Origin: a virus
Virus record (IMG/VR): IMGVR_UViG_3300010883_007299
Span: 32,474-96,473 of that record
DNA: 64,000 nt
Direction: 5' to 3' (one strand)
A program made the position numbers and the translations under genes. The notes beneath the pieces are model-generated. The model saw only the letters and a program-made list of their open reading frames with translations. It did no database searches and was not told the origin of the DNA. The stretch's first letter is position 1. Each line of letters begins with the position of its first letter. This document shows positions 3,358 through 62,117 of the stretch, one piece after another.

Positions 3358-3957
3358 TCAGAAGTTATAGCCCAATATTCCCGCCACAATATGCACTCTA
3401 TTTTGTTCACCACCATTAAAAAAGTTGTGATATACCGTATTATTTGTGATCCAAACAGAACCATCGGCCGGCATATGTCTACATTCATCACCAATTACCA
3501 TACGGCAACCTAGATTAGTAACAATAGGAACGTGCAAACGTGGTTCAGGATCCCTATGCCAACTCAAACAAGACCTAGGTTGTTTCAATAACAAACGAAC
3601 TCTACCTAGTTTAAAGCGACTGGTTAACGTTTCATATACTTCTTTAAAATAAGTATTTTCATACTTGGGGATAAATTCTGTGTAAAGATGTTCTTCTACA
3701 TAGACATCTCTTTCTACTTCTTTGCCATCGGAGTCTGGAATAGTCCAATACTTAGCTCGTATTTTATTTCCTTCTACGGAACTTGGATCTCCGGGAATTC
3801 TATTTAATGGTATAGCACCAAAGTTAGTTACACCTGGGGTCTCAAACTGTTGTTTAGATAACACATCCGTTAGAGCACCTTGCAACTTAGCTATATCAAA
3901 TTTGAAATCGAACAGATGATGATAATTACCATAATCTATATAAGTTTCTATATTCAT
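3358..3957 (-). CDS. 2OG-Fe(II) oxygenase, aspartyl/asparaginyl beta-hydroxylase-like
   Basis: HxD...H facial triad (WHRD...VYHNFFNGG) with RLHVPI and the C-terminal RVHIV arginine. Confidence 0.8.
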   Translation of the reverse strand: MNIETYIDYGNYHHLFDFKFDIAKLQGALTDVLSKQQFETPGVTNFGAIPLNRIPGDPSSVEGNKIRAKYWTIPDSDGKEVERDVYVEEHLYTEFIPKYENTYFKEVYETLTSRFKLGRVRLLLKQPRSCLSWHRDPEPRLHVPIVTNLGCRMVIGDECRHMPADGSVWITNNTVYHNFFNGGEQNRVHIVAGILGYNF

Positions 3958-32473: not shown

Positions 32474-32491
32474 GATATAATTTTCTCCTCA

Positions 32492-51845: not shown

Positions 51846-54800
51846 TTACCATGCTGTATTACTCTTACCGGCAATAATATCATTAATTGTGTCGTGTGTT
51901 ACTCGGATGTTTTCTCCACCGTAACCACCACCAGGCGATCCTGGATCGTTTGCATTTAAGCCAAGACCAATACCAGAAGCAGGTGCAGGATCTGGTATAT
52001 CAATAGGAAGAACATCTATTGTAGGTGCCATGCTAGACATCAACGCAGGAGTCGGCCAACTAGGAGCTAGTGCTTGTGCTTCAGTAGCTTGTACAGCAGT
52101 ATCAGCAGGATCAGCAAGTGCCGACCAAAGGGCTTCCGGCCCATTCATATGAATCTCAGTTGCAGTTTCAATAATATTGCCACCAGCCAGATTATAAAAA
52201 TCCAAGGTCGACTCCACATAATGGCTGATGGCAGCGTGACTATATACATTTGATGTAACAGATTGGAGATATAAACTTGTCTGAGATTTTACATGAATGC
52301 TTTTCGATGCTGCTTGAAGGAATATATTTTCATCAAGAGATTTTACATTTATATCTGTCTTAGCTTCTATATTTATAACTGTATCCAACGCTTTAATATC
52401 TACTCTTTCCTTTCCGGTAATCATTACATCATCATTAGCATAAGCAATAATATCATCTGTAGCATACATCATTATATCATCAGCAGCAAACATTTGAATA
52501 TCATCTGATAGTGCGGATATCCTAACTTGAGCAGCATCAGCAATAATTTTAATATCTCCGGTAAGTGCTTCTGCCTTAATTTCTCCAGCCGAAGCATATA
52601 TAGAAACATCTCCACCAATACTCAAATCTTCAACATTCATCATAGAAGTTCTAGCATTCCACATAACTGAATACTCGTTTATAGAACCTTGAGCTGTTGT
52701 ATAATTATCACCGTAAGTAAATTCGTGAATATCAGTTCCTGCTGTTAAGTAAATACTATCGGTTAAAGCCTTTATAGTGATTTCACTAATATCAGCTTGT
52801 ATCTTAATATTTTCTATAGCTTGTACTTGTATATGTCCAGTCTTTAAATTGAAATTGGATAATTCTTTACAGGGTCTTGTTCCTGCATGATATTTTGCTG
52901 ACGCTGGATCTAATGCAGTACCCAAGATATTCATATGACCATCATACTGCATATTAATATCACCAGAAGCCTTCATATTAATATTGCGTTTTGATGATAG
53001 GTCTAAATCACCACCTGAATGAATCTGTATCTTCCACTTTGCGGATATGTCCATTCTATCATTGGCTCGGATCCATACCTCATCATCGAAAGTCCAAGCA
53101 ACTTTGCCTTTAACATAAAGATAATCGTCAAAGATTCTAATGTTATAATTATCACCCTTTACATAATCAACCTTTGTACCTTGATGATCTACTTCATAAT
53201 AAGTTCCCGATCTATGGTACTCATGTATTCTTTCTGCACCAGGCGTATCATCAAATTCTTTAATGTGTCCTGACTCTGATTCATATACATGGTTAAATGG
53301 ATATTGTGAAGCCCAACGACTCGTTGGTTGATTCCAAAATCTAAAATTAATACCAGTATTCATTTCTGGATTGCCGATATTGATTTGACGTTCTCTGGTT
53401 TCTGCCTTTGCCCTAACCATCCAATGTGGATTAATTGATATAATACCACCACCAAGATATGCAGAATATTCAGCAGTATATTCTTTTTTCAATTCTACAG
53501 CATCTACAATAGAAGGTGTAGTAGATTCTGGACCTGAATATTCTATACTGCCCGGACCTGACCAAGGAATGCCGTCCATAGTTCCTAAGGTAATAGTGAA
53601 ACCAGAACCAGAACTAGATACATCCATTATTCGATATACACGTCCATTATATTCTTCTGAACCTCTACAACCGGATATCATTATCACATCACCCTTTTGT
53701 ACTTTAGGTTTAGTGTTTTTATTTTTATTTTCTTTTGCAGTAGCAAATGTAGTTGTACTATCTCCCCACAAACTAGACCTTGTAACAACCTTACTATCTG
53801 TAATACTCTTAATAGGAATGCCACCTTCAGCAAGTCTATTTGTATCTGATTCTGGTAATACTACCAAATCTGTTTCCTTTACATCTGCAAATTTAATATC
53901 TTTTCTAGTATCAGGTCCTTTTGGATCACTAACATTATAAATTCCTGTTCCATAATGACCATCATCAAATAATTCTTTTACTTCTTGTCTCTGTGTTGTT
54001 GCTAACTTACCCTTCTGTACATAAGGTGTTCTTGGATGTGTTAATCTAAATTCTTCTCCATCTAAACAGAAATATCCAATCTCTTGACCAGACTCTTGAC
54101 CCCATGATGCTCTGTTATCTAATGGGTCTATACCAGCAAGGCCTGCCGAGTCTGTACTAGATGTTGGTGTGTCTCTTGTGATTGGCCATGTAGGTGCATG
54201 AGTACCACCAGGCGAACCTGCTTCTTTATCAGCACGCCAATGGCCATCTTCTAAATAACCTGTTGATAGATTAACTCCTAAATGAGCTCTATATCCATAA
54301 GTTTGCACATCAGGCCATGCAAATGTTCCGAAATGAGTCCAATCACATTGCCTTAAATCAGCTGTAACCCTTCTCGTTGTACGATAAAGGTAATGTAAAA
54401 TATCCGAATGTGTTAATCTAGCAAACTTTGGTGCATAACCTTTAAGTTCTGGAAGCACCATCCATTTCTCATCATCACATTCATCTAAATCATTAGGTGC
54501 TAGACCTGCTGGTTTATAATTAGGTACTCGTTGTGTCTTTTCATATTTGTCATCAGGGAAATCTTCCGGTATCATATCGTGTTTAGATTTCGTTACACCG
54601 CAAGCAGCACCCGGACTGTTTACATAGTAAGACTGTGGTGTTTCAATAGAACTCTCATGCAATTCTGGATAATGTTCTCCAGGCCCGGCAGAATAATCAC
54701 CAAACTTCTGACTGTGACCTATTGTTACATCACTAGGAGGATAAGGAATGTTTCTTTGGTCTATAGTGGGATCCTGAAACCCATGTTCATAATCCAAATA

Positions 54801-55211
54801 ATCTTCAGAAGCATCTGGAATTTCTGATGAATATTCCTTTGTATACTTCTGCAGCATACCTCTTTGTTTTGCCCACTTTCTATTTAATTTACCAGCAAAT
54901 GATGTTCTTGTATTATTACCGGGCAGAGTGCCCATAATAATCCATTCTTGTAAAGTATCTTCTTTTGCAAAACCTACAACCCAAGTACCTTCTACTAGGT
55001 TTGTGGGTGAATCTCCAACACCAGCCATAGCACCTGCACTTACAGGTTGCATAACTTGAGACCAAGGTAAATCTTTAGTTAGAATCTTTTGTTTGTCGTC
55101 ATCATGTAAACCCAACCATCTTACTCGCACACGACCCAACTTCTCAGGATCAAATCTATCCTCGACAACACCAATGCCCCATTGAAAACCATCTTGTCCT
55201 AAAAATGCCAT
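51846..55211 (-). CDS. gp5: Baseplate hub/central spike
   Basis: OB-fold N-terminus GVVEDRFDPEKLGRVRVR...LPW, then YPFNHVYESESGH..EFDDTPGAERIH..HRSGT and a long beta-helix. Confidence 0.93.
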   Translation of the reverse strand: MAFLGQDGFQWGIGVVEDRFDPEKLGRVRVRWLGLHDDDKQKILTKDLPWSQVMQPVSAGAMAGVGDSPTNLVEGTWVVGFAKEDTLQEWIIMGTLPGNNTRTSFAGKLNRKWAKQRGMLQKYTKEYSSEIPDASEDYLDYEHGFQDPTIDQRNIPYPPSDVTIGHSQKFGDYSAGPGEHYPELHESSIETPQSYYVNSPGAACGVTKSKHDMIPEDFPDDKYEKTQRVPNYKPAGLAPNDLDECDDEKWMVLPELKGYAPKFARLTHSDILHYLYRTTRRVTADLRQCDWTHFGTFAWPDVQTYGYRAHLGVNLSTGYLEDGHWRADKEAGSPGGTHAPTWPITRDTPTSSTDSAGLAGIDPLDNRASWGQESGQEIGYFCLDGEEFRLTHPRTPYVQKGKLATTQRQEVKELFDDGHYGTGIYNVSDPKGPDTRKDIKFADVKETDLVVLPESDTNRLAEGGIPIKSITDSKVVTRSSLWGDSTTTFATAKENKNKNTKPKVQKGDVIMISGCRGSEEYNGRVYRIMDVSSSGSGFTITLGTMDGIPWSGPGSIEYSGPESTTPSIVDAVELKKEYTAEYSAYLGGGIISINPHWMVRAKAETRERQINIGNPEMNTGINFRFWNQPTSRWASQYPFNHVYESESGHIKEFDDTPGAERIHEYHRSGTYYEVDHQGTKVDYVKGDNYNIRIFDDYLYVKGKVAWTFDDEVWIRANDRMDISAKWKIQIHSGGDLDLSSKRNINMKASGDINMQYDGHMNILGTALDPASAKYHAGTRPCKELSNFNLKTGHIQVQAIENIKIQADISEITIKALTDSIYLTAGTDIHEFTYGDNYTTAQGSINEYSVMWNARTSMMNVEDLSIGGDVSIYASAGEIKAEALTGDIKIIADAAQVRISALSDDIQMFAADDIMMYATDDIIAYANDDVMITGKERVDIKALDTVINIEAKTDINVKSLDENIFLQAASKSIHVKSQTSLYLQSVTSNVYSHAAISHYVESTLDFYNLAGGNIIETATEIHMNGPEALWSALADPADTAVQATEAQALAPSWPTPALMSSMAPTIDVLPIDIPDPAPASGIGLGLNANDPGSPGGGYGGENIRVTHDTINDIIAGKSNTAW

Positions 55212-55232: not shown

Positions 55233-55240
55233 TATTTATA
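55233..55240 (-). promoter_or_regulatory. T4-type late promoter TATAAATA
   Basis: Exact consensus upstream of gp5. Confidence 0.72.
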
Positions 55241-55268: not shown

Positions 55269-55357
55269 TGGCTCCGGAGGCTCGGATCGAACGAGCACGG
55301 TATCGAAATACCACCTAGTAAACGGCTAGGCGTGTCTACCACTTCCACCACTCCGGA
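55269..55357 (-). tRNA. Atypical type-II (long variable arm) tRNA, anticodon GUU (Asn), CCA encoded
   Basis: TCCGGAG TG GTG GAAGTGGTAGA CAC G CCTAG CCGTTTA CTAGG T GGTAT TTCG ATACC GT GCTCG TTCGATC CGAGC CTCCGGA G CCA. All stems are fully paired; the amino-acid identity is uncertain. Confidence 0.9.
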
Positions 55358-55363
55358 ATTCTT

Positions 55364-56215
55364 TTACATAGACTGGATAACTCGTCTAACATCGTAATCA
55401 TTCATTGCAGAAAGTAGTCTGGTGATTCCAATTCCACCACCCACTCTTGGAAAGAAATCAAGTGATAGAAACTTATCTAGTTCCTTGTCAACTCTTTCTT
55501 TACCGAATAGGCCATACAACAGGTCAGCATACATACCATCAGATATTTCATGGAACATTCTAGACATCTCATCTGTATCAGAGGACCTTTCAGCTGAACC
55601 GATAGTCTCTTGACCTGAAATGATAACATCTATCTTGGCCGCTGTACCGTCGCCATTCTGTTTCATGTTCCAAAAAGGACTTGTGTAATTTGGAAAGTTC
55701 TTAATCATACAAACTCTACCTTGCCAACTCTTACACATTGCATCTTCATGTTTATGTTCTAGTTCTTCTACTTTAAAATAATCACACCATTCTAAATAAT
55801 CTTTATCTACAATACCATGTCCGTTACCGAATCCCATATGTTCGCATAACTCTCTTTCCATCTTTTCTAAATCGTGAACGTCACCTGGCATCTCAAATTC
55901 AAACATAGGAAAGATAATATCATGTCTACCCTCCGTAATGTTTTTCTCTTCCCGGTAGGATGTGGAGATACAAAAAAACCCGGGAATTTCCGGGTTATTT
56001 AATAATTCGTATTCGAGCCACATTTGGCCGGTTTGTGGAAGAGGCCATACTTCACCTGCATAATTATATGTTGCCACTGTAGTGGGATCTTCACAGGCTG
56101 CTAATATTGATAATCTGTTTTGTGTGTGTACTTCTTGAAAGCTACGGGCCAAAAAAAAGTCACGCAATAACGTGACCGCCTCTGTATACTTTCTTGGGTT
56201 AATTAATTGTGTCAT
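55364..56215 (-). CDS. Class IIb aminoacyl-tRNA synthetase catalytic-core paralog (AsnRS/AspRS-like, no anticodon-binding domain)
   Basis: Motif 1 (LRDFF...FQEV), LPQTGQMWLE, motif 2 STSYREE...RH...F.MFEFE, ETIGSAER and motif 3 PRVGGGIGITRL. Only 283 aa and lacks the N-terminal OB fold. Confidence 0.88.
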   Translation of the reverse strand: MTQLINPRKYTEAVTLLRDFFLARSFQEVHTQNRLSILAACEDPTTVATYNYAGEVWPLPQTGQMWLEYELLNNPEIPGFFCISTSYREEKNITEGRHDIIFPMFEFEMPGDVHDLEKMERELCEHMGFGNGHGIVDKDYLEWCDYFKVEELEHKHEDAMCKSWQGRVCMIKNFPNYTSPFWNMKQNGDGTAAKIDVIISGQETIGSAERSSDTDEMSRMFHEISDGMYADLLYGLFGKERVDKELDKFLSLDFFPRVGGGIGITRLLSAMNDYDVRRVIQSM

Positions 56216-56239: not shown

Positions 56240-56247
56240 TATTTATA
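56240..56247 (-). promoter_or_regulatory. T4-type late promoter TATAAATA
   Basis: Exact consensus between a terminator and the aaRS-like gene. Confidence 0.72.
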
Positions 56248-56252
56248 CAAAT

Positions 56253-56279
56253 AAAAAACCCCACCAGTGAGGTGGGGTT
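56253..56279 (-). terminator. Rho-independent terminator
   Basis: Minus strand AACCCCACC-TCACT-GGTGGGGTT followed by a T run. Confidence 0.88.
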
Positions 56280-58350: not shown

Positions 58351-59604
58351 TCAGAAGCCATCTTCCTCCTCTTGGTCATCGTCACCGACTTCCTCAGAGG
58401 CCGTCAAGGATTCTATGTCAGCGCCTGCATCTATCTTGGTGTACAGGTCAAGGAAAGAATCCTTCGTTTCGGCATCAAACCGATTCACAGTCAGCTCAAT
58501 CGCTTTCATTTTGTTATCAAAGATAGCAAAGGCATTTACGATATGCACAAGGCGACGAGTTGAAATGATTTCATCACAACCACCTTCTTCAAAGGTCTTG
58601 CGGATTACACCAGCCCACTTAACAAGATTGGTACCGAACTCGGAATCTTCCTTGCCATGTTTTGAAAATTCGTTGGTAAGAATTTTCTCTTCCATTTTAG
58701 CAGTCGGGTACTCCTGTTCGATGGTGACAGGAAAACGTTCCAAGAAAGCTTCGTTCAGCACGTTGGTGCCAATGAAGCGTCCATCTTCGGAACCCTGACC
58801 CTTGGTGTTAGCAGTAGCGATAACATTAAAGCCCGGTGTTGGGTGTACCCATTTGCCAATCTTCTTAATGTAGATTGACGAACCTTCCAAGACAGGCTGC
58901 AAGGCCATAATCTTATTTGAGGCAAGGTCGATCTCATCAAGGAGAAGAATCGCACCACGTTTCATGGCGGTCACAACAGGACCATCATGCCAGACGGTCT
59001 CACCATTCAGCAAACGAAAGCCACCAATCAGGTCGTCCTCGTCAGTTTCAATGGTAATGTTGGCACGGACATATTCTCGCTTTTGCCGAGCACACAATTC
59101 CTTGACCATCAAGGTTTTACCGTTACCAGACAATCCGGTGATAAACATCGGATAGAAAATTCTAGACTTAATAACATCCTTCACGGTGTTAAAATTACCG
59201 TAAGGAACATATCCCAAGAATTTTTCAGGCACATAACTGTCTTGGTTATCCATTACACCGATAGCACTGGGTGCCATCATCACGGCGGCAGTCGCCGAAG
59301 CGTTTGAGACAGTTGCCGGCACGTTTGTGACAGTCGCCGAAGCGTTTGAGACAGTTGCCGGCACGTTTGTGACAGTCGCCACGCCATTGTACATACCATT
59401 ATTGTCGGGCAAGTGGTACAAACCTCGCTCAATCTTCAAAGCATCCTTATTGACCAACCAAGTCGGCCAAGAATGTACTCTTGGTTCCACATCCACGATG
59501 GATTGCAGTTCCCGACGAGTAACGGTAACCCGGTCTTTACCGAATTCCTCTCTGACCGCTTTAACCAGAGCAACCCGTTTCTCGTTCATTTTCACATCTG
59601 ACAT
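58351..59604 (-). CDS. cobS: MoxR-type AAA+ ATPase (phage CobS-like)
   Basis: FITGLSGNGKT Walker A, ETDEDDLIGG, LLLDEID Walker B, TANTKG and ISTRRLVHI. Start moved to 59604 (AGGAG SD). Confidence 0.9.
   Translation of the reverse strand: MSDVKMNEKRVALVKAVREEFGKDRVTVTRRELQSIVDVEPRVHSWPTWLVNKDALKIERGLYHLPDNNGMYNGVATVTNVPATVSNASATVTNVPATVSNASATAAVMMAPSAIGVMDNQDSYVPEKFLGYVPYGNFNTVKDVIKSRIFYPMFITGLSGNGKTLMVKELCARQKREYVRANITIETDEDDLIGGFRLLNGETVWHDGPVVTAMKRGAILLLDEIDLASNKIMALQPVLEGSSIYIKKIGKWVHPTPGFNVIATANTKGQGSEDGRFIGTNVLNEAFLERFPVTIEQEYPTAKMEEKILTNEFSKHGKEDSEFGTNLVKWAGVIRKTFEEGGCDEIISTRRLVHIVNAFAIFDNKMKAIELTVNRFDAETKDSFLDLYTKIDAGADIESLTASEEVGDDDQEEEDGF
59289..59380. repeat. In-frame perfect 42-bp tandem repeat (2 copies plus part), built of 21-bp subunits
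   Basis: cagtcgccgaagcgtttgagacagttgccggcacgtttgtga occurs twice and encodes ATVTNVPATVSNAS in the AAA linker. Confidence 0.92.
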
Positions 59605-59643
59605 ATTATAAGTCTCCTGACTTTTTATCACTTTCCAAACAAT

Positions 59644-59819: not shown

Positions 59820-62117
59820 CTAAACAGCAATTATATCGGTCATTCTATTGACCAACATCTTGTTACCAAACTTCGTTTTTTGATTCTTAGCAAATACAGC
59901 TTTCATTTTACCAACACTCATACCTTCCTCTATATTAAGTTCGCCACCATCTTCACGAATTGTTCCAACGGGTACGATATAAAACTCATCATATGAAATT
60001 GTCTTAATTGGAGCAAACCCATGTTTACGGCAATGACTTCTCGCCTCTTTATGAGCAGCCTTGTTAAAGTATCTCTGACCAATCATAAGTTCTAAGGTTC
60101 TCATTGTTAGGCGTCGACCTTGGGCATTGCCGTCTAGGAAGATACCTACAACATTCAGATTATGGCGATCCTTCATCATTTGAATAATAGCACGGGTCTG
60201 AATATTACCCTCGTAAGCATATCCATCGCTCATCGAGGTGAACTCACCAAGCGAGTACTGCTTCTTGGTTATCGGGTCTTCCAGAAATGTCGATTTGCGG
60301 TTATAGTAACCTCTGATTGCACGGCTACGATTATAACCAACTCGTCGGTTCTGGCTAGATTCACTATAAACACTATCCATGGCAGTGTTACATTCACCAT
60401 CGGTTAGAATCATTAAATTGCAATTATCAATTCCATACTTGTTTATAAAATTCGGTAGAATCTTCTGAATCCCTACCAAGGCTTCAACCAACGGAGTTGA
60501 GGACATCTCATATGGGCCAAAGGCACCACGTCCACTACGTTGGCAATAACTAAACTTGAATAAGGTCTTAGCCATCAATGCGGACTGCTTAGCAGACATC
60601 CTGCTGGACATAATATTGAGCAAGCAGACATCGTTATGCAATGTACCGTTACCTTCTTTCAAATCCCAGACATCGGGCATATGCAGCTTCGCCGCTTCAT
60701 CTAAATCTACCTCATCATCACGCATCGCTTTGTGCCATGCGGTGTTGTGGTAACTATTGGTGAAGGCATAGACCTCAAAAGGTATATTGATTTTCTGACA
60801 GAACCACATGAGGTTAATAATCTGTTTCATGGTGTCGTACAGGTGAGGGGTCATAGAAGCAGACCAATCCAGTAACATCACCATTCCGTGATTCTTGCCA
60901 TCCGGCTTAATCGTATTACGGAGGAACAGGTCGTCATTGTATTTGTATGAAAACAATTTATTCACATCTAGCACACCAGTCTTAGCAACGGATTCTTTCC
61001 TGTATTCTGATGCTGCCTTCTTACGGTCAAATTCCTTTGCCATGTAATTAATGATTTTCTGAGACTGCCTACGGAACTTCTGGTAGTCCATATCGACTGC
61101 CGAATGCCTGGCACTGAATGCCGCATTACCTGGTGTGGGGCTGAGAACCTCATCCATAATCTTAGGTAGTTCTCGTAAGACTCGCTTATACGGAACGACC
61201 ATCCCTTTCAGGTTGGGGTCGGGAAGGGTAAAGTACACAAAAGCTTCCCGGCCATCTGAGTTTGGATTGATTAGACTATCCAACATACGGTCGAACTGGC
61301 CTTGAGTTTCTACCAGATCATCAGGTAACTCATCAGCAAAATCATCATCGCCGAACCTGGGATCAAACTCACCATCAGAATCTTCCTCATCGGAATCTCC
61401 GCCAGTTTGCTTAGTAGTATCAGATTCACCGTTGTCATTTTCGTCCTCATTATTGTCATAGCCATTGCCCGGTATAGGAATACCACCATCACTATCATCA
61501 CTATCCATGTTAAAGGAGTCGCCATTATAATCTATATCAGACTCTCCCCACATCTCCTCGATATTCTCCAGAACGTGATCCATCAAGGCTCGAGTGGTTT
61601 TCGTAACATCTCTCCACGATTCGCACGCCTCTACCATTAAAACCAGCTTTTCTTCCGAGGGATTTTTGAAAGGGATCCCAAAGGTTGCGCCGAGTTTACA
61701 ATGGAGATTAATACGATCCACAATATTCATCTGCTCGATATTCTGACCATCTTCAAAAAAGAAATTCTGATCTGCAAGGGTACGATAAGCAGAGATAAAG
61801 TCCTTAATTATCCCAGGGTACTTCCGCTTAATCTTTTTTTCTATACGAGCATCTTCCACGACATTCAGAATGCCCTTATGGAGACCATCCTTATTAATAG
61901 CTTTTGCCCAGTCCTCGAACCCCGTCCATATAGCATGACCAACTTCGTGACCAGTCATCATATCGGTGACCGCCTCGTTGTCCAATGCCCACCGTGGGAT
62001 TGTCAGAATTCGATCCTTGACATCAAAGGATGCTGTCGTAGCATTGACATCCACACGGATTGTAATATTCTCCGTGGAGAGTAACCTCGCCAACATCGTT
62101 TTACTTTGTACCGACAT
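59820..62117 (-). CDS. Metallopeptidase-like plus VWA-domain protein (CobT-like partner of the AAA ATPase)
   Basis: HEVGH and NVVEDARIE, an acidic linker, MIDAS LLDWSASM, STPL and LTDGE. Confidence 0.85.
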   Translation of the reverse strand: MSVQSKTMLARLLSTENITIRVDVNATTASFDVKDRILTIPRWALDNEAVTDMMTGHEVGHAIWTGFEDWAKAINKDGLHKGILNVVEDARIEKKIKRKYPGIIKDFISAYRTLADQNFFFEDGQNIEQMNIVDRINLHCKLGATFGIPFKNPSEEKLVLMVEACESWRDVTKTTRALMDHVLENIEEMWGESDIDYNGDSFNMDSDDSDGGIPIPGNGYDNNEDENDNGESDTTKQTGGDSDEEDSDGEFDPRFGDDDFADELPDDLVETQGQFDRMLDSLINPNSDGREAFVYFTLPDPNLKGMVVPYKRVLRELPKIMDEVLSPTPGNAAFSARHSAVDMDYQKFRRQSQKIINYMAKEFDRKKAASEYRKESVAKTGVLDVNKLFSYKYNDDLFLRNTIKPDGKNHGMVMLLDWSASMTPHLYDTMKQIINLMWFCQKINIPFEVYAFTNSYHNTAWHKAMRDDEVDLDEAAKLHMPDVWDLKEGNGTLHNDVCLLNIMSSRMSAKQSALMAKTLFKFSYCQRSGRGAFGPYEMSSTPLVEALVGIQKILPNFINKYGIDNCNLMILTDGECNTAMDSVYSESSQNRRVGYNRSRAIRGYYNRKSTFLEDPITKKQYSLGEFTSMSDGYAYEGNIQTRAIIQMMKDRHNLNVVGIFLDGNAQGRRLTMRTLELMIGQRYFNKAAHKEARSHCRKHGFAPIKTISYDEFYIVPVGTIREDGGELNIEEGMSVGKMKAVFAKNQKTKFGNKMLVNRMTDIIAV

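Follow-up and report, generated by a model that had tools for sequence, protein, structure and literature searches.

Bacterial tRNA-Asn carries a GUU anticodon, a G73 discriminator and a U1-A72 pair on a type-I body, with a 4-bp D stem, a variable loop of 4-5 nt and the anticodon loop CU-GUU-AA in which A37 is modified to t6A. It is charged by AsnRS, a class IIb synthetase of about 430-470 aa whose N-terminal OB-fold domain binds the anticodon. Stand-alone class IIb cores of about 280-330 aa also exist, among them bacterial AsnA, archaeal asparagine synthetase A (AsnRS2/AS-AR, PDB 3P8T) and EpmA/GenX/PoxA. None of these is known to charge tRNA or to be linked to a tRNA gene: AsnA and its archaeal counterpart are asparagine synthetases, and EpmA is an EF-P lysine ligase. 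GluQRS (YadB), a class I paralogue without an anticodon-binding domain, does act on a tRNA, but it glutamylates queuosine-34 of host tRNA-Asp. Natural synthetase-tRNA pairs with unusual tRNAs have been described (PylRS-tRNAPyl, ProRSx-tRNAProX of Streptomyces, the allo-tRNAs), as have phage tRNAs with altered anticodon loops or stems that escape host anticodon nucleases. Here, we describe a locus that shares features with several of these systems: a non-canonical tRNA(GUU) and, ending 6 nt upstream of it, an AsnRS-like catalytic core gene.

The locus lies in a window of 64,000 nt (positions 32,474 to 96,473 of IMG/VR record IMGVR_UViG_3300010883_007299), and its features are collected in the table below. 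The 96.5-kb record is judged 53% complete and is a T4-like myovirus. The genes just downstream of the tRNA match gp5, gp25 and gp6 baseplate proteins and PHROGs identifies many more T4-type structural genes, together with a ferredoxin-oxidoreductase family that we take to be PebS-like, which would fit a cyanophage.

Features of the enzyme-tRNA locus (positions are those of the 64,000-nt window)
Feature	Position	Strand	Description and support
tRNA(GUU)	55269..55357	-	Non-canonical type-II tRNA, called tRNA-Asn(gtt), 89 nt, by ARAGORN; 89.4 bits against the family covariance model
AsnRS-like core	55364..56215	-	283-aa class IIb synthetase catalytic core; Pfam PF00152, E 6e-14, residues 12-280
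TATAAATA	56240..56247	-	T4-type late-promoter-like motif 24 nt upstream of the enzyme start codon, followed by a GGAG ribosome-binding site; promoter function inferred
Hairpin plus T run	56258..56273	-	G+C-rich, terminator-like; closes the upstream unit and so sets the enzyme and tRNA apart as a unit of their own; function inferred
TATAAATA	55233..55240	-	Next copy of the motif, downstream of the tRNA and ahead of the gp5-like baseplate hub gene (51846-55211; Pfam Gp5_OB); marks the 3' limit of the module

The tRNA is the only one that ARAGORN calls in the window or in the whole record. It has a 7-bp acceptor stem, UCCGGAG/CUCCGGA (U1-A72, C2-G71, C3-G70), G73 and an encoded CCA; a 3-bp D stem with an 11-nt loop of the tRNA-Leu type; a 5-bp anticodon stem with the loop CC-GUU-UA (C33, G34 U35 U36, U37); an 18-nt variable region with a 5-bp stem, GGUAU/AUACC, closed by a UUCG loop; and a 5-bp T stem with the loop UUCGAUC. 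Every feature listed in a preliminary description of this sequence, which presented it as a chimera of an Asn-like acceptor and anticodon on a Leu-like body, is present and the observation is therefore confirmed. In contrast, the Rfam tRNA model (RF00005) does not call it, either at the gathering score or at E-values up to 10, and the best Rfam match is tRNA-Sec at 18.2 bits against a gathering score of 47. We treat this as a limit of the model rather than as evidence against a tRNA. The folding energy of the single sequence is likewise not significant (z -1.35) and was not used. Strong support comes instead from comparative analysis. Among 28 distinct homologues, 100% of 560 pair cells are standard pairs and 16 of 20 pairs show changes on both sides; 0 of 500 shuffles reach this and slid controls pair at 44-52%. 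U8, A14, G18, G19 and the T-loop pattern GTTC.A are invariant columns in the alignment, so the elements needed for the L-shape and EF-Tu-type handling are intact.

Position-by-position comparison of 49 distinct family members shifts the emphasis of the preliminary description. Position 32 is C in 43 and U in 6; position 33 is U in 33, A in 9, C in 6 and G in 1; position 34 is G and position 35 is U in all 49; position 36 is U in 48 and C in 1; position 37 is U in 43, A in 3 and G in 3; and position 38 is A in 37, C in 11 and G in 1. The hallmark of the family is therefore the pyrimidine at 37, whereas C33 is a variant of the clade closest to this window. C33 is not a sequencing error, as six distinct relatives from other samples have the same CC-GUU-UA loop. 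Three members have a fully canonical loop, CU-GUU-AA or CA-GUU-AA (our loci L052, L073 and L016, of which L052 and L073 have CU-GUU-AA), and one has GUC (locus L003). Acceptor stems are completely rewritten between clades (for example UCCGGAG, UGUGAGG, UCUGGGG and UGCAACC), yet U1-A72 is kept throughout these sequences, with one U-G exception, and G73 is invariant. The variable region ranges from 5 nt, a type-I-like length, to 38 nt, and we conclude that the variable arm is not a recognition element. About two thirds of members encode CCA; the P-SSM2 clade does not. Among tRNAs outside the family, the one that scores best against the family covariance model is a phage tRNA-Leu(taa), at 52.8 bits, which supports the description of the body as Leu-like, although A73 and a Leu anticodon are found in no member.

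The preliminary description did not mention the gene that ends just upstream of the tRNA. Its 283-aa product starts at the motif 1 helix and is matched end to end by the class II D/K/N synthetase core, with no domain preceding it. NCBIfam models give only weak hits: asnS (TIGR00457) scores 32 bits against a cut-off of 342.6, AsnA (NF005055) 22.8 against 389 and EpmA (NF006828) 15.3 against 264. A profile of 48 diverse homologues hits solved AsnRS structures best (E 1.6e-14), followed by archaeal/eukaryotic-type AspRS (4e-12), archaeal AsnA (3P8T, 1e-6), EpmA (6e-6) and LysRS. An AlphaFold (AF2) model of the protein (pLDDT 93), compared using VIA-align, superposes on AsnRS cores at Z 28, on AspRS at Z 27, on archaeal AsnA at Z 24.6 (rmsd 2.5 over 243 residues to 3REU) and on LysRS/GenX at Z 23.9. 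The catalytic residues, including R88, E90, R97 and H98 of motif 2, E106, E108, K194, D196, E203, R210 and the GGGIG..R266 of motif 3, are near-invariant in the profile-derived alignment of 48 sequences. We rely on this alignment because loci retrieved with peptide patterns are biased toward conserved motifs, and the invariance of GQMWLE and FPMFEFE in those loci is partly by construction. In the alignment to Brugia AsnRS the segment QTGQMWLE lines up with QSSQLYLE, so that the family has Leu67 where AspRS has its carboxylate-binding Lys; it also has Glu106 where AspRS has Asp. This is the AsnRS pattern among class IIb enzymes, and on this basis we infer an asparagine-type pocket.

The two genes form a conserved module in T4-like marine cyanophages, and this module is very common in ocean cyanophages. 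The enzyme has at least 598 relatives in IMG/VR and at least 8000 clusters at 90% identity in a large protein collection. It is present in the cultured Prochlorococcus phages P-SSM2, P-SSM5 and P-SSM7, where it is annotated "tRNA ligase"; it is gp198 of P-SSM2 and gp129 of P-SSM7. In P-SSM5 and P-SSM7 an annotated tRNA-Asn of 85-86 nt follows it directly; in P-SSM2 the tRNA is also there (3814-3902 of the retrieved locus, L082), but the RefSeq feature coordinates are displaced by about 2 kb. Among the 80 best IMG/VR loci, about 64 of the 74 with enough downstream DNA carry the tRNA immediately after the gene. A reverse search, using a pattern made of the D arm and GTTT, gave 80 listed loci, and in all 72 that hold a genuine tRNA and at least 900 nt of upstream DNA the enzyme gene is directly upstream. 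The two pattern hits without the enzyme (L149 and L184) are not cloverleaf tRNAs of this family. No other neighbor is conserved: the flanks differ between P-SSM2, P-SSM7 and this window, and although a 416-aa ORF and two small ORFs upstream resemble P-SSM2 genes 195-197 in size and order, BLASTP finds no similarity, leading us to drop the idea of a larger cassette. A weak SagC-type hit of a 69-aa ORF (E 0.005) was regarded as chance. The TATAAATA motif lies within 80 nt upstream of the enzyme in 38 of 81 homologous loci, and the two genes look like a late transcription unit of their own.

The linkage is asymmetric, since the tRNA was never seen without the enzyme but the enzyme is sometimes seen without the tRNA. 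Whole records of five phages whose enzyme lacks an adjacent tRNA were searched with the family covariance model: four gave no match and the fifth (G001) gave only four weak matches of 36-44 bits, at least three of which fall on the cluster of ordinary tRNAs that ARAGORN called in that phage. No match reached family-level scores. However, these records are only 14-28% complete and absence from these phages is not proven. The enzyme also occurs in huge phages without such a tRNA nearby. A search of 50%-identity representatives gave 657 hits, mostly stand-alone cores of 265-310 aa, and two fusions, one with dihydroorotate dehydrogenase (PyrD) and one with OMP decarboxylase (PyrF). Relatives of one fusion lie in giant-virus MAG contigs beside TFIIB, Erv1, PolB, ribonucleotide reductase and PurH, with no family tRNA. 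A scan of species-representative genomes with the single protein found the core at 56-64% identity in about 58 CPR/Patescibacteria assemblies, mainly Saccharibacteria and including contigs of 0.6-0.8 Mb, again with no family tRNA. The tRNA genes near these homologues are ordinary tRNA-Gln, Lys, Thr and Arg at a density that fits chance and shared synteny. In five of these genomes the only other class IIb proteins are AspRS (one of the non-discriminating type) and LysRS; none reaches the AsnRS cut-off, and GatB is present in all five, complete in four and in pieces in one. A tree of 159 sequences places almost all tRNA-linked enzymes in one marine-phage clade of 66 rows, with the giant-virus and CPR clades separate. 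A second small tRNA-linked clade (loci L109 and L111-L114) lies across the midpoint root. Its tRNAs keep the Leu-like D arm, the CU-GUU-UA loop and G73 but have A1-U72 and no CCA, indicating that U37 and G73 are old and conserved features and that the first base pair changes along with the enzyme clade.

Altogether, we favor a model in which the tRNA and the upstream gene form a self-contained phage module, apparently transcribed late and as one unit, although we consider it only about as likely as not. In this model, the core makes an aminoacyl-adenylate, most likely Asn-AMP, and transfers the amino acid to the 3' end of its own tRNA, which it would recognize through the acceptor end (G73 and the weak 1-72 pair) rather than the anticodon. 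The tRNA, having kept G34-U35-U36, would still read AAY codons on the ribosome. Its type-II body and hypervariable arm would be tolerated by an enzyme without an anticodon domain or hinge and would probably clash with a full-length host AsnRS. U37 and the free position 33 remove the t6A37 site, the U33-G34-U35 signal for queuosine insertion and the motifs read by known nucleases that cut tRNA-Asn or tRNA-Lys: AriB of PARIS, for which tRNA-Asn(GUU) is a documented target, reads U36-A37-A38-U39 and PrrC needs ct6A37 (bioRxiv 10.1101/2025.02.04.636281). The tRNA would then not depend on, and may not be seen by, host factors that act on the tRNA-Asn anticodon loop, such as these modifications, anticodon nucleases or the anticodon domain of the host synthetase. 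Our analysis establishes the anatomy of the locus, the obligate linkage, the covariation, the intact active site and the missing domain, whereas which amino acid is used, aminoacylation of the tRNA by the enzyme, decoding on the ribosome and the reason U37 is kept are inferred from sequence and predicted structure. Several points weigh against the model. The occurrence of the enzyme without this tRNA means that the tRNA cannot be its only substrate, and the enzyme may not act on tRNA at all; the characterized core-only class IIb paralogues are not known to charge tRNA; the conserved GUU and G73 are also exactly the identity set of a host AsnRS, so that, if the enzyme ignores the anticodon, host charging is not excluded; and a pyrimidine at 37 and a non-U33 are expected to weaken decoding.

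The preliminary interpretation is partly supported by these findings: this is a real, selected, chimeric-looking tRNA and not a decaying one. It held that perfect stems and an encoded CCA argue against decay, and that homologues with random anticodon loops and degenerate stems would refute its reading; the homologues show the opposite, with perfectly covarying stems and invariant G34 and U35. Of its three proposals, a mistranslating tRNA is the least supported, because the enzyme pocket looks Asn-like and the anticodon is Asn; a nuclease-resistant tRNA remains plausible as the reason for U37 and the variable position 33; and a non-ribosomal amino-acid donor or a decoy is not excluded, but the strict conservation of GUU speaks for decoding. 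The upstream enzyme, absent from that description, points first to a dedicated charging pair.

The main alternative, which we consider unlikely, is an asparagine-supply module without direct coupling. In this scenario the enzyme is a tRNA-independent ligase, for example an AsnA-like aspartate-ammonia ligase making free Asn, the tRNA is charged by the host AsnRS or by ND-AspRS with GatCAB, and the genes travel together only because both serve Asn incorporation into late proteins. Consistent with this idea, the known core-only paralogues AsnA and archaeal AsnA are asparagine synthetases and the fold of the latter is matched; the enzyme exists without the tRNA in giant-virus MAGs and CPR genomes with the same active-site residues; it is fused or adjacent to aspartate-consuming pyrimidine enzymes (the PyrD and PyrF fusions, and DHO_dh, Lyase_1 and Amidohydro_1 as neighbors); the tRNA keeps the full AsnRS identity set and U1-A72, which GatCAB reads (PMC1635274); and Asn makes up 6.0% of the phage codons. 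However, mere co-benefit does not require that the tRNA always be accompanied by the enzyme, the 1-72 pair switches together with the enzyme clade, and the family is closer to AsnRS and AspRS than to archaeal AsnA in both sequence and structure. In addition, the five CPR genomes examined have no AsnRS but do have GatB, so that free Asn would have no use in their translation, and the type-II body and U37 are, we infer, unlike any host AsnRS substrate.

Somewhat less likely still is the possibility that the enzyme charges or modifies the tRNA but that the product serves something other than ordinary translation: a donor for a non-ribosomal transfer, a decoy or inhibitor for a host nuclease or sensor that targets the tRNA-Asn anticodon loop, or a substrate modified in the anticodon loop in the way GluQRS modifies tRNA-Asp. 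U37 and the free position 33 break two near-universal rules for decoding tRNAs, the Rfam tRNA model does not accept the sequence, U37 destroys the AriB and PrrC signals, and truncated synthetase paralogues such as GluQRS and EpmA aminoacylate acceptors other than the tRNA 3' end. Against this, G34, U35 and U36 are conserved across enzyme clades that are only 40-50% identical while the surrounding stems turn over freely, which selection for codon reading explains most simply; three members have a canonical loop; no partner transferase is conserved next to the module; and the tertiary elements are intact. A decaying or mis-called tRNA-Leu or tRNA-Asn pseudogene, or an assembly error in the loop, for which only the Rfam and folding-energy results could be cited, is excluded by the covariation, the four perfect stems, the 49 distinct homologues with invariant functional positions, the recurrence of the C33 loop in independent samples and the annotation of the gene in three cultured phage genomes.

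The only mention of this system that our literature searches for the enzyme, the tRNA or the pairing uncovered is a table line, "tRNA ligase" (T4-GC 194), for P-SSM2 and P-SSM7 in a 2010 comparative study (PMC3037559). If the pair works as proposed it would be, to our knowledge, the first natural synthetase-tRNA pair that a lytic phage carries as a unit and the smallest known synthetase that charges a tRNA without reading the anticodon, and it would show that a tRNA with a pyrimidine at 37 and a non-U33 can be kept under strong selection for a long time. The module is not rare and sits in cultured phages, making the idea directly testable, and it bears on how ocean viruses secure translation in nitrogen-poor, streamlined hosts. 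A compact pair that may be orthogonal to its host would also interest genetic-code engineers, and the CPR and giant-virus homologues raise a wider question about what this core-only family does in genomes that lack AsnRS. A more far-reaching possibility, which we regard as tentative and on balance unlikely, is that the bare core is a working AsnRS that reads only the acceptor end, that it forms with its purpose-built tRNA, which needs no t6A or queuosine, a pair orthogonal to the host that keeps Asn codons readable when host tRNA-Asn or AsnRS is cut off or limiting, and that the same minimal enzyme is the only direct AsnRS of many CPR bacteria, which otherwise have only ND-AspRS and GatCAB, and of some giant viruses.

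Comparison with the described systems highlights how the module differs from each. It shares with bacterial tRNA-Asn and AsnRS the GUU anticodon, G73, U1-A72 and CCA end, class II motifs 2 and 3 and a predicted Asn-type pocket (Leu67, Glu106, Arg210), but the tRNA has a type-II, Leu-like body, U37 in place of t6A37 and C, A or G at position 33 in a third of members, and the enzyme lacks the OB-fold domain and hinge. With archaeal AsnA, bacterial AsnA and EpmA/GenX/PoxA it shares a stand-alone core of similar length and the same fold (Z 24-25), but it matches their models far below the cut-offs, is closer to AsnRS and AspRS and, in phages, is tied to a dedicated tRNA. Like GluQRS, it is a synthetase paralogue that has lost its anticodon-binding domain and is associated with a tRNA bearing a GUN anticodon; however, GluQRS is class I, nothing here shows modification of the loop, and U33, which queuosine insertion needs, is absent from the tRNA of this window. 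Like the phage tRNAs that escape anticodon nucleases (T5 tRNA-Lys/Thr/Asn against PARIS AriB; mycobacteriophage tRNAs, eLife 2023 e85183), it is a phage-encoded isoacceptor of a tRNA that host defense is known to target, with changes at positions such nucleases read (33 and 37). Those tRNAs keep a normal body and a purine at 37 and are charged by the host synthetase, whereas this one has another body type and U37 and brings its own synthetase-like enzyme, and no nuclease that targets tRNA-Asn is known in picocyanobacteria. Finally, as in the PylRS-tRNAPyl, ProRSx-tRNAProX and allo-tRNA systems, a synthetase gene sits beside a structurally atypical tRNA that it probably recognizes without using the anticodon. 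Those pairs recode or mistranslate, whereas here the anticodon and the predicted amino acid agree, the carrier is a lytic phage and the enzyme is a bare catalytic core.

Some members of the tRNA family depart from the common form in anticodon or body. One of them, at the viral locus L003, lies beside an enzyme that is 84% identical to that of the window but has the anticodon GUC (Asp) with G37 instead of GUU. If the enzyme ignores the anticodon, this tRNA would carry the same amino acid to Asp codons. Others (at loci L035, L043 and L069) have lost the long variable arm, with a total length of 77-78 nt and a variable loop of 5-6 nt, but keep the Leu-like 3-bp D arm, G73 and the enzyme gene upstream. 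In a further viral contig, L149, a tRNA-Leu-like 5' half comprising acceptor and D arm is followed by a long insert before a T arm, raising the possibility that this is an intron-containing tRNA gene. In the cultured phage P-SSM2 (locus L082), the tRNA-Asn feature of the RefSeq record is placed inside CDS PSSM2_205, whereas the tRNA actually lies right after PSSM2_198; the feature coordinates seem not to have been updated with the record version.

Within the window, a MoxR/CbbQ-type AAA_5 ATPase and an ORF with no family hit lie upstream of the module. Elsewhere in the window, three ORFs match "regulator of chromosome condensation" (RCC1-like) PHROGs and one matches a ferredoxin-oxidoreductase PHROG, which we take to be PebS-like and which would fit a cyanophage origin.

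Coordinates of the features described in this section
Feature	Sequence	Position	Strand
Example of a CPR/Patescibacteria locus carrying the core-only enzyme (L254)	OZ246403.1	624888-631679	
RefSeq tRNA-Asn feature PSSM2_199, as annotated	NC_006883.2 (P-SSM2)	164094-164179	
Actual position of the P-SSM2 tRNA	NC_006883.2 (P-SSM2)	about 162083-162171	
Family tRNA with anticodon GUC	L003	3868-3966	
tRNA-Leu-like 5' half, insert and T arm	L149	2817-2930	
MoxR/CbbQ-type AAA_5 ATPase (426 aa)	window	58351-59631	-
ORF with no family hit (765 aa)	window	59820-62117	-
Region with the three RCC1-like ORFs and the ferredoxin-oxidoreductase ORF	window	1-48000	

The enzyme also occurs in other settings. One clade sits in giant-virus MAG contigs from IMG/VR (loci L092-L110) beside TFIIB, Erv1/Alr, PolB, ribonucleotide reductase and PurH, without the special tRNA. 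In addition, two proteins (P0126 and P0151) are independent fusions of the core with pyrimidine-pathway enzymes: an N-terminal dihydroorotate dehydrogenase and a C-terminal OMP decarboxylase. DHO_dh, Lyase_1 and Amidohydro_1 also recur as neighbors in giant-virus and CPR loci, and together these associations hint at a link to aspartate or pyrimidine metabolism. Finally, the same core-only AsnRS-like protein is a chromosomal gene, 56-64% identical to the phage protein, in about 58 CPR/Patescibacteria assemblies, mostly Saccharibacteria (loci L248-L319). The five of these genomes that were checked have AspRS, LysRS and GatB but no AsnRS, and the core could be a minimal AsnRS there.
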